Virus record (IMG/VR): IMGVR_UViG_2778261246_000002
DNA length: 21,360 bases
Source: a virus
Lineage: Duplodnaviria > Heunggongvirae > Uroviricota > Caudoviricetes
Reading direction: 5' to 3' (one strand)
Numbering within the stretch: the stretch's first letter is position 1; each line of letters begins with the position of its first letter. The notes beneath the pieces were generated by a model. That model was not told the DNA's origin. It saw only the letters and a program-made list of their open reading frames with translations, and did no database searches. Shown here piece after piece: positions 477 to 16,909 of this stretch. Position numbers and translations under genes: made by a program.

Positions 477-544
477 AGTGGCATAACACTAAAATTGAGC
501 GTATTCAGAATACCAAGTGTCGGCTGGTGGACAATGGAATCAGT

Positions 545-901
545 TCAATATTTAGGTGGTTCAACAAGAGCGTTTATCATTGCTCTCAAATTATCGCGAA
601 CACTTATCCAAGTCTGTTCTGCTCGTTCTAACTCATTAGTGTACAGCTTTAATGTTTTATCTATGCCATATGTGGCTATTAAATTTATAGCTTCTTGTAA
701 CTTTTCGGGATTATTCCTTCTTGGGGGAGTGAATATACCGCGGATTTTTCCGGTAATTAAAGCTTTACGGTGTCTACATAGAATACCTTTACTTCCTGCT
801 GGACAATTACAAGTCATGATTAGCGAGCCAGAATCGTTTGATACAGTGACTATGTATACATCCAAACTACTGCTACTTGTTGCGAAGAATTCGTATTTCA
901 T
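545..901 (-). CDS. Small SWIM-type zinc-finger protein (118 aa), function unknown
   Basis: ATG start preceded by AAGGAG at about -8. Contains CNCPAGSKGILCRHRKAL, which fits the CxCx(n)CxH SWIM zinc-finger pattern. Lies 27 nt downstream of the RHH gene on the same strand. Confidence 0.6.
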   Translation of the reverse strand: MKYEFFATSSSSLDVYIVTVSNDSGSLIMTCNCPAGSKGILCRHRKALITGKIRGIFTPPRRNNPEKLQEAINLIATYGIDKTLKLYTNELERAEQTWISVRDNLRAMINALVEPPKY

Positions 902-928
902 GTGTTAGCTCCTTGACTTCAATTATTC

Positions 929-1123
929 TTATCCTTTTGGTTCAATACCGCGCCGTAGCAGCTCTTTGCGCCCTAACTCTTTAAGCCAGTTGGCAAGGCT
1001 TACCCCATCGTTACTGGCTTCGTTATCAAACTGCTCCTTCAATTCAGGAACTATGCGCATATGGAACGGTGGGGCCTTTCCTGTGCCTTTTTGTTTTTTA
1101 TCGCGCTTAATAACCGTTGACAT
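929..1123 (-). CDS. Arc/Mnt-family ribbon-helix-helix DNA-binding protein (64 aa), probable repressor
   Basis: PFHMRIVPELKEQFDNEASNDGVSLANWLKEL matches the Arc/Mnt beta-strand plus helix pattern (compare Mnt PHFNFRMPMEVREKLKFRAEANGRSMNSELLQIV). Its start codon abuts the palindromic operator. Confidence 0.65.
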   Translation of the reverse strand: MSTVIKRDKKQKGTGKAPPFHMRIVPELKEQFDNEASNDGVSLANWLKELGRKELLRRGIEPKG

Positions 1124-1168
1124 GTGTACACCTATAGCGTTATGTTTTTATTCGATAGGTGTACACCT
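1117..1168. promoter_or_regulatory. Divergent promoter/operator: sigma70-like rightward promoter overlapped by two palindromic operator sites
   Basis: TTGACA (1117-1122), 17-nt spacer, TTATGT (1140-1145) on the plus strand. Operator sites ATGTGTACACCT (1122-1133, one mismatch from palindrome) and AGGTGTACACCT (1157-1168, perfect 12-bp palindrome) form inverted arms 1124-1135 / 1155-1166. Confidence 0.5.
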
Positions 1169-1458
1169 TAACATGTGTGCATTTAAAAACGCAACGCCCC
1201 GCAGTGCGGGAACACATGCAGGGCGTCTAACCACCAACGATAGCAACAGTATCGAGGTAGCTATGAGAAATCATACCACACACCCGCAAGGGCGGGACTC
1301 GCACAACCTGAATAAATTCACTTGGCGCTTTATCGCCCTGAGTGCGGCTAAACCGCGCATGCTTACCATCGTGGTCACCAGCGAGCAGGAAGACCGCCAG
1401 CAATCCCCAACTGGCTGCGTGATGATATTCGCCGCCCGTATTCGTCAGGAGGTGTGCC

Positions 1459-1683
1459 ATGAATGATCTTTATTTTAAAGTGCTGACACATGCTGAAAAC
1501 GCGCTCGTTTGTGGCAAAAATATGCGAGAAATCTTATCAACCTGGCTTGATGGGACAACAAATGCGGAACACGATGAACGGGATGCTAATTTAGCTGGAG
1601 CGTTAATTACGTTACTTGATCCTGTCATCAAAGAGCTGGATGAAGCTATAAAAATACACGACCAGAGCTATACCGGAGAATAA
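1459..1683 (+). CDS. Hypothetical acidic protein (74 aa), first clearly supported gene of the rightward operon
   Basis: AGGAGG 8 nt upstream of the ATG; 3 nt from the next ORF. No family recognised. Confidence 0.55.
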   Translation: MNDLYFKVLTHAENALVCGKNMREILSTWLDGTTNAEHDERDANLAGALITLLDPVIKELDEAIKIHDQSYTGE

Positions 1684-1686
1684 AAA

Positions 1687-1974
1687 ATGAAAAATAAATT
1701 TTCTGGCTTTATTGCCAGCGGTCAAACTCATTCAAAAATCAGCCTTGGGGATATTTTCAAAGACAGCTATGGCTATCGGGTAAAGATTATTTCGGTTGAT
1801 GATCGTCGTGTCTCTTATTTGCGTGATGGTTATGATTTTGAATGTGTTATGCCGCGTCAGCAGTTCGAAAGAGATTTCATTCTGGTAAAAAATTGCAAGA
1901 CAGATAATCAGAGGCGTGCCGCAGGCTATATCCGTAAAATTCGGGCAATGTTAGTTGCCGGAGGTAACAAATGA
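1687..1974 (+). CDS. Hypothetical protein (95 aa)
   Basis: GGAGA 7 nt upstream of the ATG; stop overlaps the primase start (ATGA). No family recognised. Confidence 0.55.
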   Translation: MKNKFSGFIASGQTHSKISLGDIFKDSYGYRVKIISVDDRRVSYLRDGYDFECVMPRQQFERDFILVKNCKTDNQRRAAGYIRKIRAMLVAGGNK

Positions 1975-3791
1975 AACGTGCTCCGAACTTAAAATACCAA
2001 CCGCGCGACAAAATGACGGAAGTCATCATTTTTGCTGGCAGTGATGCCTGGAGCCATGCAAAAGAATGGAATGAATGGGCAGGTAAGCATATTGCAGCAG
2101 ATGATACACCACCAGTCATTCTGGGTACGGAACAACTGGAAAACCTGGATGATATGCAAATTATCGATGAAGGCCGTCATTATGTGCGTGTTTATCGTGC
2201 CGGAAAGATTGCAGAGAAAAGTCTGACGAAGGTTGCGACATTACTTGCTATTGCAGGCGTAAAGGAAGCACGTTGTTACCGTAGCTTTGTTGATCGAGAG
2301 CCTGAAGACTGGACTCCGCGCCTTGTCGGCCTAAAAGCTGAAGCGGAGCATGGGGAAAGTCTGGTGATTGAACTGCCAGTGAAGAAGGCAGAGCGCAAAA
2401 ATGACGAGCGTGCTTCATCTTTGGCGTTGAATCAGATGGGGGCCAGCCAGCGCGGTGAAGTTCTCCTTGCACATTACGGCGGCGAACTGGCAATCAATGC
2501 CGACTCTGACACCGTTCATCATTACAACGGCGTTGTATGGGAGCCGGTTCAGGATAAAGAGTTACAGCGTGCTATGGCGCAGATTTTCATTGATGCGGAG
2601 ATCAGCTATTCGCAGAACGCTATTAAATCGGCGGTAGATACCATGAAGTTAAGTTTGCCTGTAATGGGGAATACAGCCCGTAACCTGATTGGATTCAGTA
2701 ACGGGGTATTTGATACCAGAACTGGTAATTTTCGGGAGCATAACAAAAACGACTGGTTGTTAATTGCCAGTGAATTACCTTTCAGCCCACCAGCAGAGGG
2801 GGAAACGCTGGCAACACATGCGCCGAATTTCTGGAAGTGGTTGCGCCGTTCGGTGGCTGAGAATGACCGCAAGGCAGATCGCGTACTGGCGGCATTATTC
2901 ATGGTGCTGGCGAACCGGTACGACTGGCAGTTATTCATTGAGGTAACAGGGCCGGGGGGAAGTGGTAAAAGTGTGATGGCGGAGATTTGCACCATGCTGG
3001 CGGGTAAGGCTAATACAGTATCAGCAAGCATGAAGGCGCTGGAAGATGCAAGGGAACGTGCGTTAGTGGTTGGCTTTTCGCTGATTATCATGCCGGATAT
3101 GACCCGCTACGCTGGTGATGGGGCAGGGATTAAGGCCATTACAGGCGGTGACAAGGTGGCAATTGACCCGAAACACAAAGCCCCCTATTCAACGCGTATT
3201 CCGGCAGTAGTGCTGGCGGTTAACAATAACGCCATGTCATTCAGTGACCGCAGCGGGGGGATCTCACGTCGTCGGGTGATATTCAATTTTTCGGAAGTTG
3301 TACCGGAGAACGAACGCGATTCGATGCTGGCGGAAAAAATAGAAGGTGAGCTGGCGGTAGTGATTCGCCATCTGCTTACACGGTTTGCTGATCAGGACGA
3401 AGCCAGACGCCTGTTATATGAGCAGCAGAAATCTGAAGAAGCACTGGCGATAAAGCGAGAGGGGGATTCGCTGGTGGACTTCTGCGGCTATCTCATGGCA
3501 TCGGTAATGTGTGATGGCCTGTTAGTGGGTAATGCTGAAATTGTGCCATTCAGCCCACGCAGGTATCTCTATCATGCCTATCTGGCTTATATGAGGGCAC
3601 ATGGGTTTGGTAAACCTGTAACACTGACGCGCTTCGGTAAAGATATGCCGGGGGCAATGGCGGAATATGGCAGGGAGTATATGAAACGGAAAACGAAGCA
3701 CGGTTTGCGTTCAAACGTGACACTGACGGAGGAATCAGAAGACTGGATGCCATCATGTGTATCGGTCACTAATGACGATAGCAAAAATTAA
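1971..3791 (+). CDS. P4-family phage/plasmid primase-helicase (alpha-like replication protein, 606 aa)
   Basis: GGAGG RBS and ATGA coupling to the upstream ORF. Walker A motif TGPGGSGKS in a D5/P4-alpha-like NTPase region. A long C-terminal region is followed directly by P4-type TGTTCACC iterons. Confidence 0.8.
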   Translation: MKRAPNLKYQPRDKMTEVIIFAGSDAWSHAKEWNEWAGKHIAADDTPPVILGTEQLENLDDMQIIDEGRHYVRVYRAGKIAEKSLTKVATLLAIAGVKEARCYRSFVDREPEDWTPRLVGLKAEAEHGESLVIELPVKKAERKNDERASSLALNQMGASQRGEVLLAHYGGELAINADSDTVHHYNGVVWEPVQDKELQRAMAQIFIDAEISYSQNAIKSAVDTMKLSLPVMGNTARNLIGFSNGVFDTRTGNFREHNKNDWLLIASELPFSPPAEGETLATHAPNFWKWLRRSVAENDRKADRVLAALFMVLANRYDWQLFIEVTGPGGSGKSVMAEICTMLAGKANTVSASMKALEDARERALVVGFSLIIMPDMTRYAGDGAGIKAITGGDKVAIDPKHKAPYSTRIPAVVLAVNNNAMSFSDRSGGISRRRVIFNFSEVVPENERDSMLAEKIEGELAVVIRHLLTRFADQDEARRLLYEQQKSEEALAIKREGDSLVDFCGYLMASVMCDGLLVGNAEIVPFSPRRYLYHAYLAYMRAHGFGKPVTLTRFGKDMPGAMAEYGREYMKRKTKHGLRSNVTLTEESEDWMPSCVSVTNDDSKN

Positions 3792-3804
3792 ACTTATGGA
3801 ATAA

Positions 3805-4027
3805 CTGTTCACCACTGTTCACCCTGTCATAAATATCTTTTATATCAGTATATTATAGGGTGAACAGTTATTTATGAACTGTTCACCAAACTATTCACTG
3901 TTCACCTTTTTGATTGTTTATTGAGCTTCAAGGGTGAACAGTGGTGAACAGTTGGTGAATAGTTTTTGTGAAACTGTTCACCCATTAACATTATGAATTA
4001 AAAGAGAAAATATCAAAAGGTGAACAG
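3805..4027. repeat. Iteron cluster, probable satellite origin of replication (P4 ori-type TGTTCACC repeats)
   Basis: At least 9 copies of CTGTTCACC / GGTGAACAG in both orientations (3805-3813, 3815-3823, 3859-3867, 3879-3887, 3898-3906, 3933-3941, 3943-3951, 3974-3982, 4019-4027), plus degenerate copies, in AT-rich non-coding DNA just after the primase gene. Confidence 0.8.
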
Positions 4028-4078
4028 GTGAAGGGTTAAAACGCAAAAATTTTAATTTACTGCTGTGAGATAAAGCCT

Positions 4079-4324
4079 ATGACAGCGAAGCACACAAAAA
4101 AATCACAATCGCACGCCCTTGATTTGACGGAACACTGGTTAAGGGTGTCGATAAAAATCATCGACCGCAACGCCGGGGAAGGATACGCGAAAGCACATCC
4201 CGAACTGATTAGCGCATTCATGACAACGGCGGCTGCAAACTTTGCCACTCTGACCGAACGGGAGATTGCTGAAGCGGAGGAAGTGACAACAATCAATATT
4301 AAGTCCGGAGAGCAGGCAGCATGA
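4079..4324 (+). CDS. Hypothetical protein (81 aa), translationally coupled to ssb
   Basis: Stop overlaps the ssb start (ATGA at 4321-4324). Weak RBS, no family recognised. Confidence 0.4.
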   Translation: MTAKHTKKSQSHALDLTEHWLRVSIKIIDRNAGEGYAKAHPELISAFMTTAAANFATLTEREIAEAEEVTTINIKSGEQAA

Positions 4325-4770
4325 CGGCGCAAATATCAGTTTACGGGCGGTTGGTGGACGACCCGCAGACAAAACAGACCAGCAAGGGCACCCCCATGAC
4401 GCTGGCGCGTATGGCGGTATCACTGCCCTGCAGTCAGTCGGATGACGGTCAGGCGACGATGTGGTTATCTGTCCTGGCGTTTGGCAGACAAGCCGACGCG
4501 CTGGCAAAGCATCACAAAGGCGAACTCCTGAGCGTGGCGGGTAATATGCAGGTGAGCCAGTGGACTGGACAGAACGGTGAAACGCGGCAGGGCTGGCAGG
4601 TTATCGCAGACAGCGTAATCAGTGCGCGAACGGTGCGACCGGGCGGCAAAAAAGGTCAACAGGGTCAGGCTACTGACGCACTGAACAGAGCAAAACAACA
4701 GGCAGATCAGCAAGGAAGCCATCCACCAGTGGGAGATAATGAACAATGGGGAGATGATATTCCGTTTTAA
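4321..4770 (+). CDS. ssb: Single-stranded DNA-binding protein (149 aa)
   Basis: OB-fold SSB-like N-terminus (MTAQISVYGRLVDDPQ..), Gly/Gln-rich linker and the SSB acidic tail ending DDIPF. Confidence 0.85.
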   Translation: MTAQISVYGRLVDDPQTKQTSKGTPMTLARMAVSLPCSQSDDGQATMWLSVLAFGRQADALAKHHKGELLSVAGNMQVSQWTGQNGETRQGWQVIADSVISARTVRPGGKKGQQGQATDALNRAKQQADQQGSHPPVGDNEQWGDDIPF

Positions 4771-4787
4771 ATATTGCCAATAAAAAA

Positions 4788-4813
4788 GGCCGGAAAAAAA
4801 TAAATTTTCCGGC
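4788..4813. terminator. Hairpin between ssb and the capsid-like gene, possible terminator or module boundary
   Basis: GCCGGAAAA / TTTTCCGGC 9-bp stem with a 7-nt loop. No U-tract on the plus side; TTTTTTATT follows it on the minus strand. Confidence 0.3.
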
Positions 4814-4987
4814 ATGCTACATAAATCCCGACCAAAGGGAGTGAAGATATTAACACTAATTATCCGCGCTGAAGTTGTTATCCCAAAACTTTATACAACA
4901 TTGCACTCGGTTGCATGTATTCGCATGACAAATATCGGTGATAGCATATATCCACAATTATTTTTAATGAATGCAAAGAGGATGCGT

Positions 4988-6028
4988 ATGGTTGATTTAT
5001 ATTCGCCTACCCAGCTTGTACAGGTGGTTAATGCTGTAGATGTACAAAAACAACTAAATGCGTTGTTTACCAGTTTGTTTTTTACTCGCTCGGTAATGTT
5101 TGAATCGCGCGATATTATTCTTGATACAATCGACGATCCAAATATCCCAATTGCAGCGTTTTGTTCTCCTATGGTGGGTAGTAAAGTTTCACGTGACGAA
5201 GGGTACGAATCAAAAACAATTCGTCCAGGCTATATGAAGCCGAAAAGCAGCATTGATCCAAATAAGTTAGCTGTGCGCCCTGCTGGTGTATCACCTGAGC
5301 AATACAATGCTTTTGGAGCGCGTAATATTAAAGTTAAACAGGCGATTGTAAATCAGGCTAAAGCTATTCGTGCACGTATTGAATGGCTTGCCGTTCAGGC
5401 AATCACAACGGGGAAAAATATCATTGAGGGCGATGGTATTGAACGTTATGAGCTGGACTGGAATATTAAACCACAAAATATCATCACTCAGTCTGGCGGT
5501 GCTGAGTGGTCAGGTAAGGATAAAGAAACTTTTGATCCAAATGATGATATTGAGAGCTACGCAGAATTTAGTGAGGGCGTCACTAATATCATCATTATGG
5601 GCGGTAATGTATGGAAGAAATACCGTTCATTCAGAGCGATAAAAGAGGCTCTGGATACCCGTCGTGGTTCTAATTCCGAACTGGAAACGGCTCTTAAAGA
5701 CCTTGGTGATTCGGTGAGTTTTAAAGGGTATATGGGCGATGTTGCGATTGTTGTATACAGCGGGCGTTATACCGACGAGGACGGAACTGAAAAACATTTC
5801 CTTGATCCTGATTTGATGGTGCTTGGCAATACGGCTCTTCAGGGGATTGTCGCCTATGGCGGTATTCAGGATCCGGAGCTAATCCGAATGGGGCTGACTA
5901 AAGCCGAACTTGCACCGAAAAACTATATTGTGCCTGGTGATCCGGCTATTGAATATGTGCAGACACATTCAGCACCACAGCCAATACCGGCCCGCATCAA
6001 TCGTTTTGTTACCGTTCGCATTGGCTAA
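4988..6028 (+). CDS. Diverged lambda-gpE-like major capsid protein (HK97-fold MCP paralog, ~346 aa)
   Basis: Aligns along its length with lambda E (roughly 45-50% identity by eye), including an identical LDTRRGSNSELETA block and ITQSGGxEWSxxDKxTxDPxDDIE. I place the start at ATG 4988 (AAGAGGA RBS 5 nt upstream) rather than the ORF-track start at 4814, because MVDLYSPTQL aligns with the lambda E N-terminus. Confidence 0.8.
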   Translation: MVDLYSPTQLVQVVNAVDVQKQLNALFTSLFFTRSVMFESRDIILDTIDDPNIPIAAFCSPMVGSKVSRDEGYESKTIRPGYMKPKSSIDPNKLAVRPAGVSPEQYNAFGARNIKVKQAIVNQAKAIRARIEWLAVQAITTGKNIIEGDGIERYELDWNIKPQNIITQSGGAEWSGKDKETFDPNDDIESYAEFSEGVTNIIIMGGNVWKKYRSFRAIKEALDTRRGSNSELETALKDLGDSVSFKGYMGDVAIVVYSGRYTDEDGTEKHFLDPDLMVLGNTALQGIVAYGGIQDPELIRMGLTKAELAPKNYIVPGDPAIEYVQTHSAPQPIPARINRFVTVRIG

Positions 6029-6037
6029 GGGGGAGCA

Positions 6038-6379
6038 ATGGCTACTCATTACACTGAACTCATGGCTGGCACTGAAGCACTGGTGACTACGCTGGGGATA
6101 TTTTCAGCTAATAAAGGGGTAATTCCTGCATTTACGCCACTGATGCAGGAAGATGCAACAGGTGCACTGGTGGTATGGGATGGTTCGAGCGTAGGTAAAG
6201 CGGTTTATGTTTCCGCTGTACAAATCGACACCGCGAAAAAAACACAGGCTCAGGTCTATAAGACAGGTGTCTTAAATGTTGATGCTCTGAACTGGCCTGA
6301 GTCTGTAAAAGAACTGTCAGTAAAGATTGCAGCGTTTGTTGGCTCAGGTATTTCTGTTCAGCCGCTGGCTCGTGTGTAA
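6038..6379 (+). CDS. Lambda-gpD-like head decoration protein (113 aa)
   Basis: PAFTPLMQEDATGALVVWDGSSVGKAV..AAFVGSGISVQ aligns with lambda gpD [46 protein letters not shown] RBS; starts 10 nt after the capsid-like gene. Confidence 0.75.
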   Translation: MATHYTELMAGTEALVTTLGIFSANKGVIPAFTPLMQEDATGALVVWDGSSVGKAVYVSAVQIDTAKKTQAQVYKTGVLNVDALNWPESVKELSVKIAAFVGSGISVQPLARV

Positions 6380-6390
6380 AGGGGGATACA

Positions 6391-6774
6391 ATGCAGAATG
6401 ATTACAATGACCTTAAGCCAATTGCCGAAATGATGTACCCGAATCCAGCTGTAGAGGAATTAAAAGCTATCGCTGACAAAATGTGTTTAAGCGAGCGCCT
6501 TGTTGATATGAATCAGGTGATGGAAATTACAACCCTGAGTCGGCGTACACTGCTAAACCTTGAGGCTAGTGGAGAGTTCCCGGAGCGTGTGCAGGTTACG
6601 GAAGGGCGTAAGGCCTGGTATTTAAGTGAAGTGATCGACTGGATAAATAATATTCCTCGCGCTTCTGAATATTGCCGCGTACCTGTCCCAAAAAAGCCAG
6701 ATGCGGCGCTATGCCTCAAGATTGAGCGTGTACGCCGCAATGCACGGGATGGTCGCTATAAGCTGATTGGTTGA
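6391..6774 (+). CDS. AlpA/MerR-like winged-HTH DNA-binding protein (127 aa)
   Basis: MNQVMEITTLSRRTLLNLEASGEFPERVQVTEGRKAWYLSEVIDWIN fits the AlpA/excisionase wHTH pattern, a fold also used by Nu1-type small terminases. Same [8 protein letters not shown]-type RBS as the D-like gene. Ends 20-25 nt before the cos-like segment. Confidence 0.55.
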   Translation: MQNDYNDLKPIAEMMYPNPAVEELKAIADKMCLSERLVDMNQVMEITTLSRRTLLNLEASGEFPERVQVTEGRKAWYLSEVIDWINNIPRASEYCRVPVPKKPDAALCLKIERVRRNARDGRYKLIG

Positions 6775-6794
6775 TGAAATTAGGGCCCGCTCTG

Positions 6795-7019
6795 GCTGGC
6801 GGGTCCTTTCCGGCGATCTGACAGGCTACGGGGCGTCAGGCGCGCAGTTTTTCTCTATTTATGGAAATTTTCCGGTTTAAGGCATTTCCGTTCTTCTTCG
6901 CCGTAACTTTATGTTTTTATTTAAAATACCCCCTGAAAAGAAAGGAAATGACAGGCGCTGAAAACGGGCATTTTGGCCTCTGTCGTTTCCTTTCTCTGTT
7001 TTTGTCCGTGGAATGAACA
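6795..7019 (+). promoter_or_regulatory. Lambda-type cos site (cosQ - cosN - cosB with R3/R2/R1 elements)
   Basis: 6799-6830 matches the lambda right end (GCGGGTCCTTTCCGGCGATCTGACAGGCTACG vs ACGGGTCCTTTCCGGTGATCCGACAGGTTACG). 6831 onward matches the lambda left end through the Nu1 start. The 12-mer at the cosN position is GGGCGTCAGGCG versus lambda GGGCGGCGACCT. R-like elements: CATTTCCGTTCTTC (~6883), inverted AAAGAAAGGAAATGACAGG (~6938), CTGTCGTTTCCTTTCTCTG (~6975). Confidence 0.7.
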
Positions 7020-7214
7020 ATGGAAGTCAACAAAGATCAGCTGGCTGACATTTTGGGCAAGAGTTGTGCAATACTTTTGTCAGACGTAAATATTTTTGAG
7101 GAACATTATTATATTTATGTAATTAGAGATATGTTTGATAGGACTAGAAATAAAGCAGACGCCTTAGTTATGTCAATTGCTGAAATAATAAAGGAAAATA
7201 GCAATGATAAATAG
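7020..7214 (+). pseudogene. Truncated Nu1-type small terminase gene: first ~13 codons fused to unrelated AT-rich sequence
   Basis: MEVNKDQLADILG matches the lambda Nu1 N-terminus MEVNKKQLADIFG. Similarity to lambda ends near 7062, after which the ORF runs through AT-rich DNA to a stop at 7212-7214. Confidence 0.6.
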
Positions 7215-7243
7215 AAAAAAGCGGTCACGCGACCGCTTTTATT
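7215..7243. terminator. Bidirectional rho-independent terminator between converging genes
   Basis: AAAAAA-GCGGTC-acgc-GACCGC-TTTTATT: perfect 6-bp GC stem flanked by an A-tract and a T-tract. Sits between the plus-strand fusion ORF and the minus-strand HEPN gene. Confidence 0.7.
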
Positions 7244-7278
7244 ATTTGCAAGTTATTTTTTTGGCTGGAGATAAACTA

Positions 7279-7827
7279 TTACTGTTCACCAATTTGCTCT
7301 CTAAACTGTGTACTGAACGTATCTAGTTGAGAGACAAATGAATGTGCATTTAAAAATTTATTATAAATCTCTTCAGCTGTGCTTTCTAATACAAAAGTAG
7401 CATAATTATTATGTGCTAATTTATTTCTTAGCTCTCCGATTTCCATAAAATCAGAGATAGACTTGGTCAACTCTGTGCTTGATTTTACCTTCTCAATCAT
7501 AAACTCTTTAAATTTTGGGCCAAAAAAGGAAAAAAACTGGTTTGCATTCCTTTTTTTCCAATCAAAGAGTGTATGATACTGCCTGGTTAGGGCCTTATTA
7601 TCGATAAAATCGTGCGTAAGATTACATTGGCTTGGGTTAAGCATACAATGTATCTTAGTTACAACTAAAGTTTCAAAATAGCTAGCACATGCTAATAGCA
7701 TTACTTTTGAAAATTGTGATTTGTAATCATTAGCAAAACTAATCTCATTATGAGTTAGAAGAAAATCATAATAACACTTATAGTTATTAAACATACTTTC
7801 AATAGAAGTATATCCCATATCCTCCAT
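7279..7827 (-). CDS. HEPN-motif protein (predicted RNase effector, ~182 aa)
   Basis: ELRNKLAHNNY carries an R-x4-H motif as in HEPN domains. I prefer ATG at 7827 (MEDMGY.., GGAGG ~12 nt upstream, 4 nt after the DUF262 stop) over the ORF-track GTG at 7860. AT-rich codon usage. Confidence 0.6.
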   Translation of the reverse strand: MEDMGYTSIESMFNNYKCYYDFLLTHNEISFANDYKSQFSKVMLLACASYFETLVVTKIHCMLNPSQCNLTHDFIDNKALTRQYHTLFDWKKRNANQFFSFFGPKFKEFMIEKVKSSTELTKSISDFMEIGELRNKLAHNNYATFVLESTAEEIYNKFLNAHSFVSQLDTFSTQFREQIGEQ

Positions 7828-7831
7828 TATT

Positions 7832-8995
7832 TTACATTCCCTCCAAAATTGTTCTTGCACGTTCTAGACGTCCAATTACATGCTCTCTTCTTGTTGTTTT
7901 ATCAGTACTAAATGTCAGAAATTCAGGATCATTTTTAAGCTTATCGATGTAATTCACCGTCACTTGTCTTATTTTTAGATCTTTATCTTTAAATGAGTCA
8001 TAAGTTGCAGCATAAAAAATTGACTCAAATAAAGTTATACTCATACGATTCCCACCAGTTCTGAAATTGATTTCATCAATTCCATCAACACTATCCATAA
8101 ATTCATTCCATATATTACTAAATAAAGTTATGTCTTTAGTGTCGTAGTTTTTTGCATAATTTGAGAAATTGTTCAAAAAACCGCTAACTGAGCTTTTGTA
8201 TTGAGATGTAAAAAGGGACATAGCAAATGTGCGCAATATCGCTTCAATATCACTCAATCGCATGTCAACAACATTTTTTGAAAGAATTTTTCTCCATGTC
8301 TTGTTTTCATTCAATGAAACAAGATTTGAAAGAAAGTCTGAGTGATATAAACTCATACGAATTTCTTGAGGAGAAAGGTTCATTCCCCCACTATTTAGGC
8401 GGTTAAATATTTCAAACATTGCACCATCTTCCGAATCTTGTGCAACCGGTTTGATTACCATATTTCGTATGGTTGCCAGATTTAAAGTGGTTTGAAATTC
8501 GTTTAATGTTTCATAGTTTTTCCCATTAAACTTGTTTTTTTGGGTGTCTGATAGACCATCAAGTTTTAGGTTGAACTTTGTGAAGTATTCATCATTGTGA
8601 AGAATGTTTTCTGGAATGTTTCCATTATCTTCAAAGATTTTTCTCAGTTCAGAACGTTTCTCTTTTCTAGGGAATACACCATTTACAAAGTAATAAAGGG
8701 TCATTAATCTCTGCTGACCATCTATCACTAAAAATTCATTTTTATCTTGTTCATATAAAAATATTTGAGGTATAGGAAGGCCTATTAAAAGAGATTCAAT
8801 GAGTTTTGATGCTCGTTTGATATCCCAAACATAATGCCTTTGAAAGTTAGGGATTTTAAAAACTTTTGATTTAATAAAACTTATAATTGTGATTATATTA
8901 AAATCATTGGGCGTAGTAGTAAGTTGAAACTCATCAATTGGATAGGATTCTGGCTCATCCTCGTATTGCTTTTCTTCATAATCTTCTGGTTGCAT
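7832..8995 (-). CDS. DUF262 (ParB/GmrS-like) domain protein (~387 aa)
   Basis: Hallmark motifs FQRHYVW and VIDGQQRLMTL, plus the downstream FEIFNRLNSGGMNLSPQEI element. No His-Me/DUF1524 nuclease motif seen in the C-terminal half. I prefer ATG at 8995 (AAGGA 7 nt upstream) over GTG at 9043. Confidence 0.8.
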   Translation of the reverse strand: MQPEDYEEKQYEDEPESYPIDEFQLTTTPNDFNIITIISFIKSKVFKIPNFQRHYVWDIKRASKLIESLLIGLPIPQIFLYEQDKNEFLVIDGQQRLMTLYYFVNGVFPRKEKRSELRKIFEDNGNIPENILHNDEYFTKFNLKLDGLSDTQKNKFNGKNYETLNEFQTTLNLATIRNMVIKPVAQDSEDGAMFEIFNRLNSGGMNLSPQEIRMSLYHSDFLSNLVSLNENKTWRKILSKNVVDMRLSDIEAILRTFAMSLFTSQYKSSVSGFLNNFSNYAKNYDTKDITLFSNIWNEFMDSVDGIDEINFRTGGNRMSITLFESIFYAATYDSFKDKDLKIRQVTVNYIDKLKNDPEFLTFSTDKTTRREHVIGRLERARTILEGM

Positions 8996-9089
8996 CGTGT
9001 CATCCTTTTTCTTCGTGAATATGGTTTTTAGACAAGTCCTCACTACACATATCTGTATTGCAGAAAGTATTGCAGTGATAGGAGTTGCG

Positions 9090-9125
9090 TAGATATATAA
9101 ACCACAAAGCTAAGTGAAATCAAAT
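9090..9125 (-). promoter_or_regulatory. Putative sigma70 promoter for the DUF262-HEPN operon
   Basis: On the minus strand TTGATT (plus-strand 9118-9123), 17 nt, TTATAT (9095-9100). Two direct repeats GTATTGCAG (9055-9063, 9067-9075) lie between it and the start codon. Confidence 0.35.
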
Positions 9126-9151
9126 AGTTCTTTCGGGATTGACTCATGTAG

Positions 9152-9940
9152 CCGAAGCATGAGGTGAATCCGCAGATGACCCTGCGTCGCCTGCCGGATG
9201 AAGATCCGCAGAATCTGGCGGACCCGGCTTACCGCCGCCGTCGCATCATCATGCAGAACATGCGAGACGAAGAGCTGGCCATTGCTCAGGTCGAAGAGAT
9301 GCAGGCAGTTTCTGCTGTGCTTAAGGGCAAATACACCATGACCGGTGAAGCCTTCGATCCGGTTGAGGTGGATATGGGCCGCAGTGCGGCGAACAACATC
9401 ACGCAGTCCGGTGGTACGGAGTGGAGCAAGCGTGACAAGTCCACGTATGACCCGACCGACGATATCGAAGCCTATGCGCTGAACGCCAGCGGAGTGGTGA
9501 ATATCATCGTGTTTGATCCGAAAGGCTGGGCGCTGTTCCGTTCCTTCAAAGCCGTCAAGGAGAAGCTGGATACCCGTCGCGGCTCTAATTCCGAGCTGGA
9601 GACAGCGGTAAAAGACCTGGGCGAAGCGGTGTCCTATAAGGGAATGTATGGCGATACGGCGATCGTCGTGTATTCCGGACAGTACGTAGAAAACGACGTC
9701 AAAAAGAACTTCCTGCCGGACAACACGATGGTGCTGGGGAACACTCAGGCACGCGGTCTGCGCACCTATGGCTGCATTCAGGATGCGGACGCACAGCGCG
9801 AAGGTATTAACGCCTCTGCCCGCTACCCGAAAAACTGGGTGACCACCGGCGATCCGGCGCGTGAGTTCACCATGATTCAGTCAGCACCGCTGATGCTGCT
9901 GGCTGACCCTGATGCGTTCGTGTCCGTACAACTGGCGTAA
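9152..9940 (+). pseudogene. E: Lambda major capsid protein E, 3' fragment (codons ~80-341), lacking start and N-terminus
   Basis: In-frame translation from 9152 gives PKHEVNPQMTLRRLPDEDPQNLADPAYRRRRIIMQNMRDEEL..SAPLMLLADPDAFVSVQLA, matching lambda gpE from residue ~80. An in-frame TAG sits at 9149-9151 and upstream DNA is unrelated AT-rich sequence. Confidence 0.85.
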
Positions 9941-9981
9941 TCATGGCCCTTCGGGGCCATTTTCTCTCTGTGGAGGAGTCC

Positions 9982-10377
9982 ATGACGAAAGATGAACTGA
10001 TTGCCCGTCTTCAGGTGCTGGGTGAGCAACTGAACCGTGATGTCAGCCTGATGGGGACGAAAGAAGAACTGGTGCTCCGTGTGGCAGAGCTGGAAGAGGA
10101 GCTTGATGACACGGATGACGCTGCCGGTCAGGACACATCTGTCAGCCCGGAAAATGCGCTGACCGGACATGAAAATGAGGTTGTATCAGCGCAGCCGGAT
10201 ACCGTGACTGATACGGCTGATCTGGTCACGGTTGTGGCACTGGTGACGCTGCATACTGATGCACTTCACGCCACGCGGGATGAGGCTGTGGCATTTGTGC
10301 TGCCGGGAACGGCGTTCCGTGTCTCTGCCGGTGTGTCAGCTGAAATGACAGAGCGCGGCCTGGCCAGAATGCAATAA
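9982..10377 (+). CDS. FI: Lambda gpFI-like DNA-packaging/head-completion protein
   Basis: MTKDELIARLQVLGEQLNRDVSL..MTERGLARMQ matches lambda FI; GAGGAG RBS. Chosen over the upstream ORF-track start at 9943. Confidence 0.85.
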   Translation: MTKDELIARLQVLGEQLNRDVSLMGTKEELVLRVAELEEELDDTDDAAGQDTSVSPENALTGHENEVVSAQPDTVTDTADLVTVVALVTLHTDALHATRDEAVAFVLPGTAFRVSAGVSAEMTERGLARMQ

Positions 10378-10388
10378 CGGGAGGCGCT

Positions 10389-10742
10389 GTGGCTGATTTC
10401 GATAACCTGTTCGATGCTGCCATTGCCCGCGCCGATGAAACGATACGCGGGTACATGGGAACGTCAGCCACCATGACATCCGGTGAGCAGTCCGGTGCTG
10501 TGATACGTGGTGTTTTTGATGACCCTGAAAATATCAGCTATGCCGGACAGGGCGTGCGCGTTGAAGGCTCCAGCCCGTCCCTGTTTGTCCGGACTGATGA
10601 TGTGCGGCAGCTGCGGCGCGGCGACACGCTGACCATCGGTGAGGAAAACTTCTGGATAGACCGGATTTCGCCGGATGATGGCGGAAGCTGTCATCTCTGG
10701 CTTGGGCGGGGCGTACCGCCTGCCGTTAACCGTCGCCGCTGA
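10389..10742 (+). CDS. FII: Lambda gpFII-like head-tail joining protein
   Basis: MADFDNLFDAAIARADETIRGYMG..HLWLGRGVPPAVNRRR matches lambda FII; GTG start. Confidence 0.85.
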   Translation: MADFDNLFDAAIARADETIRGYMGTSATMTSGEQSGAVIRGVFDDPENISYAGQGVRVEGSSPSLFVRTDDVRQLRRGDTLTIGEENFWIDRISPDDGGSCHLWLGRGVPPAVNRRR

Positions 10743-10753
10743 AAGGGGGATGT

Positions 10754-11332
10754 ATGGCCATAAAAGGTCTTGAGCAGGCCGTTGAAAACCTCAGCCGTAT
10801 CAGCAGAACGGCGGTGCCCGGTGCCGCCGCAATGGCCATTAACCGCGTTGCTTCATCCGCGATATCGCAGTCGGCGTCACAGGTTGCCCGTGAGACAAAG
10901 GTACGCCGGAAACTGGTAAAGGAAAGGGCCAGGCTGAAAAGGGCCACGGTCAAAAATCCGCAGGCCAGAATCAAAGTTAACCGGGGGGATTTGCCCGTAA
11001 TAAAGCTGGGTAACGCGCGGATTGTCCTGTCCCGACGCAGGCGTCGTAAAAAGGGGCAGCGTTCAGTCCTGAAAGGTGGCGGCAGCGTGCTTGTGGTGGG
11101 AAACCGTCGTATTCCCGGCGCGTTTATTCAGCAACTGAAAAATGGCCGGTGGCATGTCATGCAGCGTGTGGCCGGGAAAAACCGTTACCCCATTGATGTG
11201 GTGAAAATCCCGATGGCGGTGCCGCTGACCACGGCGTTTAAACAAAATATTGAGCGGATACGGCGTGAACGTCTTCCGAAAGAGCTGGGCTATGCGCTGC
11301 AGCATCAACTGAGGATGGTAATAAAGCGATGA
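10754..11332 (+). CDS. Z: Lambda gpZ-like tail completion protein
   Basis: 192-aa product matching lambda Z; same length and position as in lambda. Confidence 0.9.
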   Translation: MAIKGLEQAVENLSRISRTAVPGAAAMAINRVASSAISQSASQVARETKVRRKLVKERARLKRATVKNPQARIKVNRGDLPVIKLGNARIVLSRRRRRKKGQRSVLKGGGSVLVVGNRRIPGAFIQQLKNGRWHVMQRVAGKNRYPIDVVKIPMAVPLTTAFKQNIERIRRERLPKELGYALQHQLRMVIKR

Positions 11333-11724
11333 AACATACTGAACTCCGTGCAGCCGTACTGGATGCACTGGAGAAGCATGACACCGGGGCGACGTTTTTT
11401 GATGGTCGCCCCGCTGTTTTTGATGAGGCGGATTTTCCGGCAGTTGCCGTTTATCTCACCGGCGCTGAATACACGGGCGAAGAGCTGGACAGCGATACCT
11501 GGCAGGCGGAGCTGCATATCGAAGTTTTCCTGCCTGCTCAGGTGCCGGATTCAGAGCTGGATGCGTGGATGGAGTCCCGGATTTATCCGGTGATGAGCGA
11601 TATCCCGGCACTGTCAGATTTGATCACCAGTATGGTGGCCAGCGGCTATGACTACCGGCGCGACGATGATGCGGGCCTGTGGAGTTCAGCCGATCTGACT
11701 TATGTCATTACCTATGAAATGTGA
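11329..11724 (+). CDS. U: Lambda gpU-like tail terminator protein
   Basis: 131-aa product matching lambda U; ATGA overlap with Z. Confidence 0.9.
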
Positions 11725-11731
11725 GGACGCT

Positions 11732-12472
11732 ATGCCTGTACCAAATCCTACAATGCCGGTGAAAGGTGCCGGGACCACCCTGTGGGTTTATAAGGGGAGC
11801 GGTGACCCTTATGCGAATCCGCTTTCAGACGTTGACTGGTCGCGTCTGGCAAAAGTTAAAGACCTGACGCCCGGCGAACTGACCGCTGAGTCCTATGACG
11901 ACAGCTATCTCGATGATGAAGATGCAGACTGGACTGCGACCGGGCAGGGGCAGAAATCCGCCGGAGATACCAGCTTCACGCTGGCGTGGATGCCCGGAGA
12001 GCAGGGGCAGCAGGCGCTGCTGGCGTGGTTTAATGAAGGTGATACCCGTGCCTATAAAATCCGCTTCCCGAACGGCACGGTCGATGTGTTCCGTGGCTGG
12101 GTCAGCAGTATCGGTAAAGCGGTGACGGCGAAGGAAGTGATCACCCGCACGGTGAAAGTCACCAACGTGGGACGTCCGTCAATGGCAGAAGATCGCAGCA
12201 CGGTAACAGCGGCAACCGGCATGACCGTGACGCCTGCCAGCACTTCGGTGGTGAAAGGGCAGAGCACCACGCTGACCGTGGCATTCCAGCCGGAAGGCGC
12301 AACCGACAAGAGCTTCCGTGCGGTGTCTGCGGATAAAACAAAAGCCACCGTGTCGGTCAGTGGTATGACCATCACCGTGAAAGGTGTTGCTGCAGGCAAG
12401 GTCAACATTCCGGTCGTATCTGGTAATGGTGAGTTTGCTGCGGTTGCAGAAATCAACGTCACCGCCAGTTAA
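11732..12472 (+). CDS. V: Lambda gpV-like major tail tube protein
   Basis: [33 protein letters not shown].. matches the lambda V N-terminus; GAGGA RBS. The ORF-track start at 11702 overlaps U and is less likely. Confidence 0.9.
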
Positions 12473-12487
12473 TCCGGAGAGTCAGCG

Positions 12488-12910
12488 ATGTTCCTGAAAA
12501 CCGAATCATTTGAACATAACGGTGTGACCGTCACGCTTTCTGAACTGTCAGCCCTGCAGCGTATTGAGCATCTCGACCTGATGAAACGGCAGGCAGAACA
12601 GGCGGAGTCAGACAGCAACCGGAAGTTTACTGTGGAAGACGCCATCAGAACCGGCGCGTTTCTGGTGGCGATGTCCCTGTGGCATAACCATCCGAAGAAG
12701 ACAAAGCTGCCTTCCATGAATGAAGCCGTTAAACAGATTGAGCAGGAAGTGCTTACCACCTGGCCCACAGAGGCAATTTCTCATGCTGAAAACGTGGTGT
12801 ACCGGCTGTCCGGTATGTATGAGTTTGTGGTGAATGATGCTCCTGAACAGGCAGAGGACGCCGGGTCTGCAGAGCCTGTTTCTGCGGGAAAGTGTTCGAC
12901 GGTGAGCTGA
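12488..12910 (+). CDS. G: Lambda gpG-like tail assembly chaperone
   Basis: 140-aa product MFLKTESFEHNGVTVTLSELSALQRIEHL.. matching lambda G. Confidence 0.9.
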   Translation: MFLKTESFEHNGVTVTLSELSALQRIEHLDLMKRQAEQAESDSNRKFTVEDAIRTGAFLVAMSLWHNHPKKTKLPSMNEAVKQIEQEVLTTWPTEAISHAENVVYRLSGMYEFVVNDAPEQAEDAGSAEPVSAGKCSTVS

Positions 12911-13326
12911 GTTTTGCCCTGAAACTGGCGCGTGAGATGGGGCGACCCGACTGGCGCGCCATGCTTGCCGGGATGTCATCCACGGAGTATGCCGACTGGC
13001 ACCGCTTTTACAGTACCCATTATTTTCATGATGTTCTGCTGGATATGCACTTTTCCGGGCTGACGTACACCGTGCTCAGCCTGTTTTTCAGCGATCCGGA
13101 GATGCATCCGCTGGATTTCAGTCTGCTGAACCGGCGCGAGGCTGACGAAGAGCCTGAAGATGATGTGCTGATGCAGAAAGCGGCAGGGCTTGCCGGAGGC
13201 GTTCGTTTTGGCCCGGACGGGAATGAAGTTATCCCCGCTTCCCCGGATGTGGCGGACATGACGGAGGATGACGTAATGCTGATGACAGTATCAGAAGGGA
13301 TCGCAGGAGGAGTCCGGTATGGCTGA
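12488..13326 (+). CDS. T: gpG-T tail assembly fusion protein made by programmed -1 ribosomal frameshift (G frame 12488-12892, T frame to 13326)
   Basis: Slippery heptamer GGGAAAG at 12886-12892, as in lambda G/T. The -1 frame ORF 12892-13326 encodes a T-like sequence with no independent strong start. Confidence 0.75.
12886..12892 (+). promoter_or_regulatory. Programmed -1 frameshift slippery site (G GGA AAG)
   Basis: Heptamer GGGAAAG near the 3' end of G, at the junction with the overlapping T frame. Confidence 0.7.
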
Positions 13327-15880
13327 ACCGGTAGGCGATCTGGTCGTTGATTTAAGTCTGGATGCGGCCAGATTTGACGAGCAGATGGCCAGAGTCAGGC
13401 GTCATTTTTCCGGTACGGAAACTGATGCGAAAAAAACAGCGGCAGTCGTTGAACAGTCGATGAGCCGGCAGGCGCTGGCTGCACAGAAAGCGGGGATTTC
13501 CGTCGGGCAGTATAAAGCCGCCATGCGTATGCTGCCTGCACAGTTCACTGACGTGGCCACGCAGCTTGCAGGCGGGCAAAGTCCGTGGCTGATCCTGCTG
13601 CAACAGGGTGGTCAGGTGAAGGACTCCTTCGGCGGGATGATCCCCATGTTCAGGGGGCTTGCCGGTGCGATCACCCTGCCGATGGTCGGGGCCACCTCGC
13701 TGGCGGTGGCGACCGGTGCGCTGGCGTATGCCTGGTATCAGGGCAACTCAACCCTGTCCGATTTCAACAAAACGCTGGTCCTTTCCGGCAATCAGTCGGG
13801 TCTGACGGCAGATCGTATGCTGGTCCTGTCCAGAGCCGGGCAGGCGGCAGGGCTGACGTTTAACCAGACCAGCGAGTCACTCAGCGCACTGGTTAAGGCG
13901 GGAGTAAGCGGTGAGGCTCAGATTGCATCCATCAGCCAGAGTGTGGCGCGTTTCTCCTCTGCATCCGGCGTGGAGGTGGACAAGGTCGCTGAAGCCTTCG
14001 GGAAGCTGACCACAGACCCGACGTCAGGGCTGACAGCGATGGCACGCCAGTTCCATAACGTGACGGCGGAGCAGATTGCGTATGTTGCTCAGTTGCAGCA
14101 TTCCGGCGATGAAGCCGGGGCATTGCAGGCTGCGAACGAGGCCGCGACGAAAGGGTTTGATGACCAGACCCGCCGCCTGAAAGAGAACATGGGTACGCTG
14201 GAGACCTGGGCAGACAGGACAGCGCGGGCATTCAAATCCATGTGGGATGCGGTGCTGGATACTGGTCGTCCTGATACCGCGCAGGAGATGCTGATTAAGG
14301 CAGAGGCTGCGTTTAAGAAAGCGGACGACATCTGGAGTCTGCGCAAGGATGATTATTTCGTTAACGATGAAGCGCAGGCGCGTTACTGGGATGATCGTGA
14401 AAAGGCCCGTCTTGCGCTTGAAGCCGCGAGAAAGAAGGCTGAACAGCAGAGTCAACAGGACAAAAATGCGCAGCAGCAGAGCGATACTGAAGCGTCACGG
14501 CTGAAATATACCGAAGAGGCGCAGAAAGCTTACGAACGGCTGCAGACGCCGCTGGAGAAATATACCGCCCGTCAGGAAGAACTGAACAAGGCACTGAAGG
14601 ACGGGAAAATTCTGCAGGCAGATTACAACACGCTGATGGCGGCGGCGAAAAAGGACTATGAAGCGACGCTGAAAAAGCCGAAACAGTCCGGCGTGAAGGT
14701 GTCTGCGGGCGATCGTCAGGAAGACAGTGCTCATGCTGCCCTGCTGACGCTTCAGGCTGAACTCCGGACGCTGGAGAAGCATGCCGGAGCAAATGAGAAA
14801 ATCAGCCAGCAGCGCCGGGATTTGTGGAAGGCTGAAAGTCAGTTCGCGGTACTGGAGGAGGCGGCACAACGTCGCCAGCTGTCTGCACAGGAGAAATCCC
14901 TGCTGGCGCATAAAGATGAGACGCTGGAGTACAAACGCCAGCTGGCTGCACTTGGCGACAAGGTTACGTATCAGGAGCGCCTGAACGCGCTGGCGCAGCA
15001 GGCGGATAAATTCGCACAGCAGCAACGGGCAAAACGGGCCGCCATTGATGCGAAAAACCGGGGGCTGACTGACCGGCAGGCAGCGCGGGAAGCCACAGAA
15101 CAGCGCCTGAAGGAACAGTATGGCGATAATTCTCTGGCGCTGAATAACGTCATGTCAGAGCAGAAAAAGACCTGGGCGGCTGAAGACCAGCTTCGCGGGA
15201 GCTGGATGGCAGGCCTGAAGTCCGGCTGGAGTGAGTGGGAAGAGAGCGCCACGGACAGTATGTCGCAGGTTAAAAGTGCAGCCACGCAGACCTTTGATGG
15301 TATTGCGCAGAATATGGCGGCGATGCTGACCGGCAGTGAGCAGAACTGGCGCAGCTTCACCCGTTCCGTGCTGTCCATGATGACAGAAATTCTGCTTAAG
15401 CAGGCAATGGTGGGGATTGTCGGGAGTATCGGCAGCGCCATTGGCGGGGCTGTTGGTGGCGGCGCATCCGCGTCAGGCGGTACAGCCATTCAGGCCGCTG
15501 CGGCGAAATTCCATTTTGCAACCGGAGGATTTACGGGAACCGGCGGCAAATATGAGCCAGCGGGGATTGTTCACCGTGGTGAATTTGTCTTCACGAAGGA
15601 GGCAACCAGCCGGATTGGCGTGGGGAATCTCTACCGGCTGATGCGCGGCTATGCCACCGGTGGTTATGTCGGTACACCGGGCAGTCTGGCTGACAGCCGG
15701 TCGCAGGCGTCCGGGACGTTTGAGCAGAATAACCATGTGGTGATTAACAACGACGGCACGAACGGGCAGATAGGTCCGGCTGCTCTGAAGGCGGTGTATG
15801 ACATGGCCCGCAAGGGTGCCCGTGATGAAATTCAGACACAGATGCGTGATGGTGGCCTGTTCTCCGGAGGTGGACGATGA
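13319..15880 (+). CDS. H: Lambda gpH-like tail tape-measure protein (853 aa)
   Basis: MAEPVGDLVVDLSLDAARFDEQMARVRRHF.. through ..MRDGGLFSGGGR, same length as lambda H. Confidence 0.95.
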   Translation: MAEPVGDLVVDLSLDAARFDEQMARVRRHFSGTETDAKKTAAVVEQSMSRQALAAQKAGISVGQYKAAMRMLPAQFTDVATQLAGGQSPWLILLQQGGQVKDSFGGMIPMFRGLAGAITLPMVGATSLAVATGALAYAWYQGNSTLSDFNKTLVLSGNQSGLTADRMLVLSRAGQAAGLTFNQTSESLSALVKAGVSGEAQIASISQSVARFSSASGVEVDKVAEAFGKLTTDPTSGLTAMARQFHNVTAEQIAYVAQLQHSGDEAGALQAANEAATKGFDDQTRRLKENMGTLETWADRTARAFKSMWDAVLDTGRPDTAQEMLIKAEAAFKKADDIWSLRKDDYFVNDEAQARYWDDREKARLALEAARKKAEQQSQQDKNAQQQSDTEASRLKYTEEAQKAYERLQTPLEKYTARQEELNKALKDGKILQADYNTLMAAAKKDYEATLKKPKQSGVKVSAGDRQEDSAHAALLTLQAELRTLEKHAGANEKISQQRRDLWKAESQFAVLEEAAQRRQLSAQEKSLLAHKDETLEYKRQLAALGDKVTYQERLNALAQQADKFAQQQRAKRAAIDAKNRGLTDRQAAREATEQRLKEQYGDNSLALNNVMSEQKKTWAAEDQLRGSWMAGLKSGWSEWEESATDSMSQVKSAATQTFDGIAQNMAAMLTGSEQNWRSFTRSVLSMMTEILLKQAMVGIVGSIGSAIGGAVGGGASASGGTAIQAAAAKFHFATGGFTGTGGKYEPAGIVHRGEFVFTKEATSRIGVGNLYRLMRGYATGGYVGTPGSLADSRSQASGTFEQNNHVVINNDGTNGQIGPAALKAVYDMARKGARDEIQTQMRDGGLFSGGGR

Positions 15881-16904: not shown

Positions 16905-16909
16905 ATCCC

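Follow-up and report, generated by a model that had tools for sequence, protein, structure and literature searches.

A divergent DUF262–HEPN gene pair of the PD-T4-2 type as predicted anti-phage cargo of a helper-embedded phage satellite

The DNA analysed here is the 21,360-nucleotide (nt) stretch of the Caudoviricetes record IMGVR_UViG_2778261246_000002, referred to below in its full length as the window. It harbours a cassette of two minus-strand genes, designated A (encoding a DUF262 protein) and B (encoding a HEPN protein), which is carried as cargo by a phage satellite integrated in a lambdoid prophage. The features of the cassette are as follows:

7063-9045: AT-rich cargo segment holding the A-B cassette, its terminator and the upstream region, delimited by composition and identity breaks
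7832-8995, minus strand: gene A, 387 amino acids (aa), open reading frame (ORF) with an internal ATG start
7279-7827, minus strand: gene B, 182 aa, ORF with an internal ATG start
7217-7240, both strands: bidirectional intrinsic terminator, 10-bp stem with 5 G-C pairs and T-runs on either strand
8996-9123, minus strand: upstream region of gene A, with the Shine-Dalgarno sequence AAGGA 8 nt before the ATG and a candidate promoter at 9095-9123 overlapping the attR arm

The GC content of 7063-9045 is 31.4%, compared with 45.8% in the remainder of the satellite (1-7062) and 57.3% in the prophage part of the window (9161-21360). The sliding GC fraction stays at 0.30-0.34 over 7001-9000, with values of ∼0.46-0.50 on the left and 0.57 on the right. 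On the left, the match to sister satellites and to the cos/Nu1 region of the helper ends at ∼7064; on the right, partial identity to the attR arm of a sister satellite restarts at ∼9046, and identity to a sister satellite with different cargo is full from 9139. Since the homology to sister satellites is interrupted between ∼7064 and the attR arm (∼9046-9139), the cargo was delimited to ∼7063-9045. Gene A lies upstream of gene B in the same direction with a gap of 4 nt, and both coding sequences are annotated by RefSeq in 31 complete Escherichia coli genomes (as 'DUF262 domain-containing protein' and 'HEPN domain-containing protein'). The terminator at 7217-7240, called on both strands, closes the A-B operon as well as the convergent late transcript of the satellite. 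An Rfam scan of the whole window gave no match at gathering thresholds.

The product of gene A matches the Pfam family GmrSD_N/DUF262 (PF03235) with an E value of 1.7e-35 and 123 bits (cut-off 33); a DUF1524/His-Me domain was absent from it in the Pfam search at E <= 0.1. Three of its motifs, QRxxxW (FQRHYVW), DGQQR and F..NRLN.GG, are invariant across 54 aligned homologues. The PADLOC model of NsnA was matched by residues 13-385 of A over profile positions 32-380 of 385 (2e-59, 200 bits), and the PD-T4-2_A model with 7e-39 and 132 bits. An architecture termed 'ParB-DUF262 plus ParBDB' has been described for NsnA, SspE and GmrSD (PMC12065111), and A has the same architecture, since it aligns end to end with the NsnA model. 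In the AlphaFold (AF2) model of A (pLDDT 80) the N-terminal half is alpha/beta and the C-terminal half purely helical, and the best fold matches of this model among solved structures are BrxU (E = 1.7e-4), SspE and the ParB/Noc CTPases. Meanwhile, the search of the PDB with a profile of the A family returned a marginal match to BrxU only and no solved structure of the family. A is a ParB/DUF262 NTPase-like protein whose C-terminal domain is helical (NsnA-C/'ParBDB'-like), and the role of sensor is proposed for it.

The protein encoded by gene B matches Pfam HEPN_RiboL-PSP (PF18735) with an E value of 1.6e-13 and 51.5 bits (cut-off 28.4). Its ELRNKLAH segment corresponds to R134-N135-x3-H139 (RNx3H) and is invariant across 40 homologues. 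B combines the all-alpha HEPN fold with the conserved Rx4-6H motif typical of HEPN (RiboL-PSP) proteins. The PDB search with a profile of the B family gave nothing real and no solved structure of the family. B, a HEPN protein, is proposed to serve as the RNase effector.

Much of what the first-pass annotation had read from the letters of this DNA is borne out by these data, namely an AT-rich segment carrying a minus-strand two-gene operon, a left boundary at 7063, which proved exact, a bidirectional terminator, a DUF262/ParB-like protein devoid of DUF1524 and a HEPN-type R-x4-H motif in its partner. Of the checks it had proposed, the profile searches recovered both Pfam families and the PADLOC models of NsnA, PD-T4-2_A and, weakly, PD-T4-2_B, and the structure prediction for A led to the BrxU, SspE and ParB/Noc folds.

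The pairing of the two genes is strict. A scan of one genome per species yielded at least 538 relatives of A; 80 loci were kept, 79 of them with an A-type ORF, and in all 79 assessable loci a B homologue lies directly downstream of A on the same strand, DGQQR also being present in every A (79/79). No third gene is conserved, any other neighbour being common to at most 4 of the 79 loci. The hosts of the module include Gammaproteobacteria, Cyanobacteria, Chloroflexota, Actinobacteria, Bacteroidota, Planctomycetota, Parcubacteria and Methanobacteriota, and its carriers are of many kinds: in Yersinia a P2-like prophage, at its integrase end, superintegron cassettes of Vibrio cholerae (among toxin-antitoxin pairs), a relaxase-bearing island in Salmonella and an Akkermansia phage. 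Given the strict A-B pairing, the lack of a shared third gene and the many mobile-element carriers, the pair forms a mobile module of two genes that is self-contained. A pair 93% identical to it is found in Enterobacter hormaechei, where it fills the corresponding slot of a capE-type satellite whose Nu1 gene is intact, and therefore the cassette predates the truncation of terS seen in E. coli. Within E. coli it is found in 31 of the 5426 complete genomes, always on the chromosome and at least 99% identical; distant blastn in this species recovered only these 31 near-identical copies and a 124-nt DUF262 patch in plasmid GmrSD genes.

The same combination of domains is known from PD-T4-2, a system isolated from E. 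coli ECOR65 by T4 selection and tabulated as 'DUF262, HEPN' (Vassallo et al. 2022, Nat Microbiol, PMC9519451), for which HHpred gave PF03235 in the case of PD-T4-2 A and PF18735 in the case of PD-T4-2 B. With its native promoter PD-T4-2 protected K-12 against T4, and its deletion sensitised ECOR65 to T4; the plasmid list of that study holds a PD-T4-2B H127A construct, and the mutated conserved residues were essential for protection 'in four cases' (PMC9519451). An operon of this kind, 'Ribo L-PSP-HEPN ... operon with ParB', had already been listed by Anantharaman et al. 2013 (PMC3710099). In reviews and later analyses, PD-T4-2 is placed together with Menshen and Dazbog among the DUF262 systems that lack DUF1524 and are mechanistically uncharacterised.

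The distant blastn with the cassette DNA gave no PD-T4-2 locus. True loci of the system were located with the homology arm (50 nt) of the lambda-Red primer published for its deletion; this arm matches 17 of the 5426 complete E. coli genomes. In E. coli 2009C-3133 (L101 6968-8603) a DUF262 gene (364 aa) and, after a gap of 4 nt, a HEPN gene (167 aa) make up the locus, which sits between psu and int in a P4-like satellite at ssrA. It is regarded as bona fide PD-T4-2 because PADLOC scores its proteins at 538 bits (PD-T4-2_A model) and 213 bits (PD-T4-2_B model). Both E. coli lineages of DUF262-HEPN pairs are thus cargo of satellites and adjoin an att end. The A protein of the window shares 26% amino acid identity with PD-T4-2A over its full length (BLASTP, 385 columns, E = 5e-26). 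Both B proteins score above the gathering score of Pfam PF18735, and RNAAAH127 of PD-T4-2B aligns with RNKLAH139 of B from the window. As judged from these sequence comparisons, the pair in the window is of PD-T4-2 type, but divergent, and belongs to a clearly separate and much more widespread lineage.

The domains, the conservation of the motifs, the strict A-B pairing, the homology of A to PD-T4-2A and the cargo context all point to a PD-T4-2-type two-gene anti-phage module that serves as accessory cargo of the satellite, and as far as identity and general function are concerned this assignment is considered quite probable. Several observations weigh against it, nevertheless. The two B proteins show no recognisable similarity in BLASTP (E = 2.9), and the hhalign comparison of the B-family profile with the single PD-T4-2B sequence was not significant. 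Of the three PADLOC PD-T4-2_B models, on which PD-T4-2B itself scores 213, 126 and 111 bits, B of the window is matched by PDLC04028 only (19 bits, E = 2e-4), so that functional equivalence of the two systems is an extrapolation from architecture. A scores higher on NsnA of Menshen than on PD-T4-2_A (200 versus 132 bits). The promoter which the first-pass annotation had placed at ∼9095-9123 could not be upheld, as the sigma-70 scan calls no minus-strand promoter upstream of A and the candidate, judged by eye, amounts to a weak TTGATT-17/18-TATATA. No published mechanism of PD-T4-2 was found in the literature searched, nor is there a PDB structure of the A or the B family. In addition, a few of the genomes carry disrupted copies (IS2 adjoining the cassette, ISKpn26 between or within the two genes), and in CT282 the HEPN gene is broken into 'hypothetical' pieces; the cassette is, because of these insertions and breaks, dispensable.

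The mechanistic details of a model in which A governs B are held with lower confidence than the identity and general function of the module. As the cassette lies on the strand opposite to all satellite genes and has separate Shine-Dalgarno sequences and a private terminator, the lysogen probably expresses it without any need for induction of the satellite. A would bind and sense incoming phage DNA through its ParB-type NTPase and the helical, DNA-binding-type domain, which is of the kind seen in NsnA, SspE and BrxU, the trigger plausibly being modified T-even DNA by analogy with GmrSD, BrxU and SspE. Using the binding or hydrolysis of NTP, A may then switch on B, with which it could form a physical complex. 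B presumably dimerises to build the RNx3H active site and would cleave RNA (tRNA, mRNA or rRNA), thereby blocking phage multiplication, with abortive infection as a possible outcome.

The pan-prokaryotic clade with proteins of ∼387 and 182 aa may, alternatively, represent a functionally distinct system, perhaps with its own trigger and RNA target, rather than another PD-T4-2, and within the satellite it may serve the partnership of satellite and helper; it might, for example, exclude non-helper phages that would destroy the composite prophage. This is regarded as unlikely. Current sets of defence hidden Markov models effectively miss or mislabel the clade, A being drawn to NsnA and B barely detected.

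It seems rather improbable that the cassette is in the first place a toxin-antitoxin or addiction module, in which B would be a HEPN toxin, A its neutralising partner and stabilisation of the satellite or cassette the main role. PD-T4-2, its homologue in architecture, gives defence against T4 in its native strain as well as in K-12, and A, as a 387-aa two-domain NTPase with invariant catalytic motifs, goes far beyond the needs of a simple antitoxin. One must bear in mind, however, that toxin-antitoxin behaviour and phage defence are mutually compatible.

The closest solved folds of A, BrxU (an enzyme of the GmrSD family) and SspE, raise a further alternative, namely a DNA-targeting system akin to type IV restriction, with A as a ParB-type nuclease or nickase acting on modified phage DNA and B in an accessory or regulatory role. 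ParB-fold domains are listed as DNases in restriction-modification contexts (Anantharaman 2013, PMC3710099), and the phage used to select PD-T4-2, T4, has modified DNA. The nuclease of GmrSD, BrxU and SspE is, however, the DUF1524 His-Me domain, which A does not have, B has retained an invariant HEPN catalytic motif, and PD-T4-2B H127A is among the constructs of a study in which the mutated conserved residues were essential in four cases (PMC9519451). This explanation appears very improbable.

A remnant or minimal form of Menshen (NsnABC), with A as NsnA, is effectively refuted. It derives its appeal from the fact that NsnA is the best PADLOC match of A (2e-59, full length); yet there is no NsnB ABC-ATPase or NsnC in or beside the cassette, the flanks being the cos/terS remnant and attR, the 79 related loci all have a HEPN partner and no conserved third gene, and the NsnA model is broad, as bona fide PD-T4-2A also matches it (1.6e-58, 197 bits). 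Equally refuted is the first-pass version, in which a system of an uncharacterised kind had taken the place of the lambda head genes. Nu1 to D are indeed absent inside the window and E is truncated, so the 'site of the missing lambda head genes' holds for the window, but not for the prophage: in genomes of the source type the head genes (those of terminase, portal, protease and D) are found intact immediately upstream of the satellite, and the architecture is that of the validated PD-T4-2. That annotation was not aware of a characterised DUF262 (without DUF1524) plus HEPN system, but PD-T4-2 was validated in 2022 and a ParB plus RiboL-PSP-HEPN operon listed in 2013. Novelty accordingly falls, since a match of the pair to a characterised kind of system was what that annotation itself had said would make it known; its reading of the pair as a candidate anti-phage system holds.

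The window begins inside a helper-embedded phage-inducible chromosomal island (PICI) of the capE type, which has inserted into gene E of a lambdoid prophage. The corresponding island 11capE has the site E:Phage_cap_E:80 and 201 instances (Tommasini, Mageeney & Williams 2023, PMC10111431). The features of the carrier are:

1-9160, continuing upstream of the window: satellite (L005 10898-21873 in strain W284)
4988-6028, plus strand: satellite E-like major capsid protein (Pfam Phage_cap_E, 2.4e-41)
6038-6379, plus strand: satellite D-like decoration protein (Pfam HDPD, 4.4e-15)
6391-6774, plus strand: AlpA-family helix-turn-helix protein (Pfam Phage_AlpA, 7.6e-9; PDB 8c3t AlpA, 2e-9)
6799-7019, plus strand: cos region of the satellite (cosN/cosB-like), sharing 91% identity with the helper cos and having a divergent cosN core
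7020-7214, plus strand: chimeric 64-aa ORF (WP_000453554.1), ∼14 Nu1-type terS codons (7020-7062) fused to AT-rich cargo
9046-9160: attR arm, in which the motif TGTATTGCAG / GTATTGCAG is doubled (9054-9063, 9067-9075), including the crossover region at ∼9150-9160
9152-9940, plus strand: C-terminal fragment of gene E, which encodes the major capsid protein (Pfam Phage_cap_E profile 94-328; RefSeq 'major capsid protein, missing N-terminus')

The gene order was taken from FDAARGOS_1268, W284 and NRG 857C. Parts of the window are matched at 100% identity by NRG 857C, W284 and CD09 each; the best matches listed begin at position 158 or 368 and do not cover bases 1-157. Upstream of the satellite lie intact lambdoid genes for terminase, W, portal, S49 protease and D, followed by an N-terminal fragment of E. 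The satellite then comprises the integrase, AlpA, a variable zone, Icd-like, DUF4222, primase and single-stranded DNA-binding protein (SSB) genes and a late module in the order E-like capsid, D-like decoration and AlpA-like helix-turn-helix, then a small ORF, HEPN and DUF262; after the cassette come the C-terminal E fragment and FI, FII, Z, U, V, G, T, H onward. Integration took place at codon ∼82 of the prophage gene E, which in all three genomes is left in two pieces around the island, an N-terminal one of 246 nt and a C-terminal one of 789 nt, and only the attR side of the split lies within the window. Likewise, int and alpA are found upstream of the window in the genomes, and the D5_N/DUF5906 primase, SSB and DUF4222 genes inside it. 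The island is thus inserted inside a late gene of the prophage in the same orientation as the late operon, as is characteristic of helper-embedded PICIs. The satellite encodes E-like capsid and D-like decoration proteins of its own while splitting the E gene of its helper. Helper prophages with the same satellite differ in tail length genes: the tape-measure gene (13319-15880) encodes 853 aa in the window and in FDAARGOS_1268 and 612 aa in W284 (L005 26041-27879).

In blastn, 6799-7064 of the window is identical in 241 of 266 positions to the helper cos/Nu1 start in W284 (L005 4487-4752), and a 258-bp cos segment shared at 90% with the helper was reported for 11capE (PMC10111431). The cosN cores differ (window 6830-6850 versus L005 4520-4540), reading GGGGCGTCAGGCGCGCAG in the satellite and GGGGCGGCGACCTCGCGG in the helper. 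The gene of the AlpA-family protein is located directly upstream of the satellite cos. Together, this gene and the divergent cosN recall the Rpp-type systems by which PICIs redirect packaging. The terS start of the chimeric ORF reads MEVNKDQLADILGK, compared with MEVNKKQLADIFGA in the helper Nu1, and sister satellites have a full or a pseudogenised (internally stopped) terS at this position. As for the attR arm, its doubled motif TGTATTGCA recurs just upstream of int at attL of W284 (L005 11022-11044), and the doubled motifs probably represent binding sites of the arm type for the integrase; the paper on helper-embedded PICIs (PMC10111431) mentions a 'doubled motif' in attP. Downstream of the primase gene, an AT-rich dip at ∼3800-3981 (L005 16522-16703) contains repeated units with ACTGTTCACC and a pair of 29-nt palindromic repeats, and is probably the replication origin of the satellite with its iterons.

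The late module of the satellite is present at a coverage of at least 80% in 365 E. coli genomes, only 31 of which have the cassette; the latter is cargo in a variable 3' slot between the cos/terS remnant and attR. In one sampled relative the slot holds a terS pseudogene and a minus-strand DUF2971 gene, in another three genes (tail-assembly-like, 228-aa hypothetical and DUF3892), and in further relatives an intact terS and a 93-aa hypothetical gene. Defence cargo in hotspots of P4-like elements and PICIs is an established theme (including Vassallo et al. 2022, PMC9519451), and a word search of the full text of the paper on helper-embedded PICIs (PMC10111431) retrieved no description of defence cargo in the passages displayed. 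What looks like a second variable cargo region lies right after int-alpA, where W284 has a TIR-domain gene and other strains have a gene of a 179-aa hypothetical protein, YlcI/YnfO or Bro-N genes. In the window, this dynamic zone contains a minus-strand ORF with a SWIM zinc finger (545-901, Pfam 2.6e-5); identity of the window start with the TIR-domain gene of W284 was rejected on account of 15 stops in the translation.

In itself, the cassette is one more divergent, predicted DUF262 plus HEPN defence pair on one more satellite, and as such matters little. Of some practical value is that helper-embedded PICIs possess a variable slot next to attR able to hold defence-type genes, a cargo slot apparently undiscussed in the searched text of PMC10111431. 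The clade is, moreover, very widespread and strictly two-gene, its HEPN partner being detected only marginally by the standard defence-finder models. The well-conserved E. coli copy (e.g. that of NRG 857C) would offer a convenient model for the control of a HEPN RNase by a ParB-type NTPase.

With regard to the carrier, the satellite resembles 11capE in its insertion at codon ∼80 of a lambda-E homologue, in the succession of Integration, dynamic (Bro), Replication and Late zones, in its own E-like capsid gene and in a cos ∼90% identical to that of the helper. It differs in that the published four-zone scheme (PMC10111431) has no cargo zone, whereas here a slot with a defence-type cassette is present and terS is reduced to 14 codons.

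Menshen, i.e. NsnABC (Millman 2022; analysis of the Zhang lab, NAR 2025, PMC12065111), has likewise been proposed to couple a DUF262 protein as sensor to an RNase as effector, and A of the window has the architecture of NsnA and matches its model in full length. Neither the NsnB ABC-ATPase nor the NsnC inPIN-nuclease is present in the window, however, where the partner is a stand-alone HEPN protein; no NsnB or NsnC ORF lies between the cos/terS remnant and attR, nor is a third gene conserved in the 79 related loci. Identity with Menshen was rejected on the absence of these two components. GmrSD, BrxU and SspE share with A an N-terminal DUF262 NTPase that carries DGQQR and, behind it, a helical middle domain, and two of them, BrxU and SspE, are its closest solved folds. 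A is nevertheless devoid of the DUF1524 His-Me nuclease, the presumed effector being a separate RNase; for want of DUF1524, and with the C-terminal half of the A model purely helical, a GmrSD-type identity was rejected as well.

PD-T4-2, which PADLOC lists as PDLC04027/04028, agrees with the pair of the window in the order of A and B, their common direction and the 4-nt gap. In both systems A is a DUF262/GmrSD_N protein without DUF1524 but with a helical C-terminal domain, B is a HEPN protein of ∼170-180 aa with PF18735 and RNx3H, and the whole is an AT-rich piece of cargo located next to the att end in a phage satellite. The differences concern the B proteins, which are unalignable pairwise beyond the catalytic motif, the model scores (132/19 bits for A/B of the window versus 538/213 for the true system), the sizes (387/182 versus 364/167 aa) and the carriers, a PICI-type helper-embedded satellite in one case and a P4-like satellite in the other.

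The same logic of a sensor plus HEPN is met in further systems. Peduovirus P2_4B2 (L090 140-2015) has a DUF262 gene with a 239-aa HEPN gene of the MAE_28990 type, and Klebsiella phage ST16-OXA48phi5.4 (L092 2300-4203) one with a 220-aa HEPN gene of the RiboL-PSP type; these pairs are also temperate-phage cargo, but differ from the pair described here in their longer HEPN partners (220-239 aa) and in an A identity of 24-29%. PD-lambda-5 ('ParB/HEPN, methyltransferase') follows this logic too, though as a ParB-HEPN fusion plus a methyltransferase. The DUF262 plus HEPN architecture has diversified several times.

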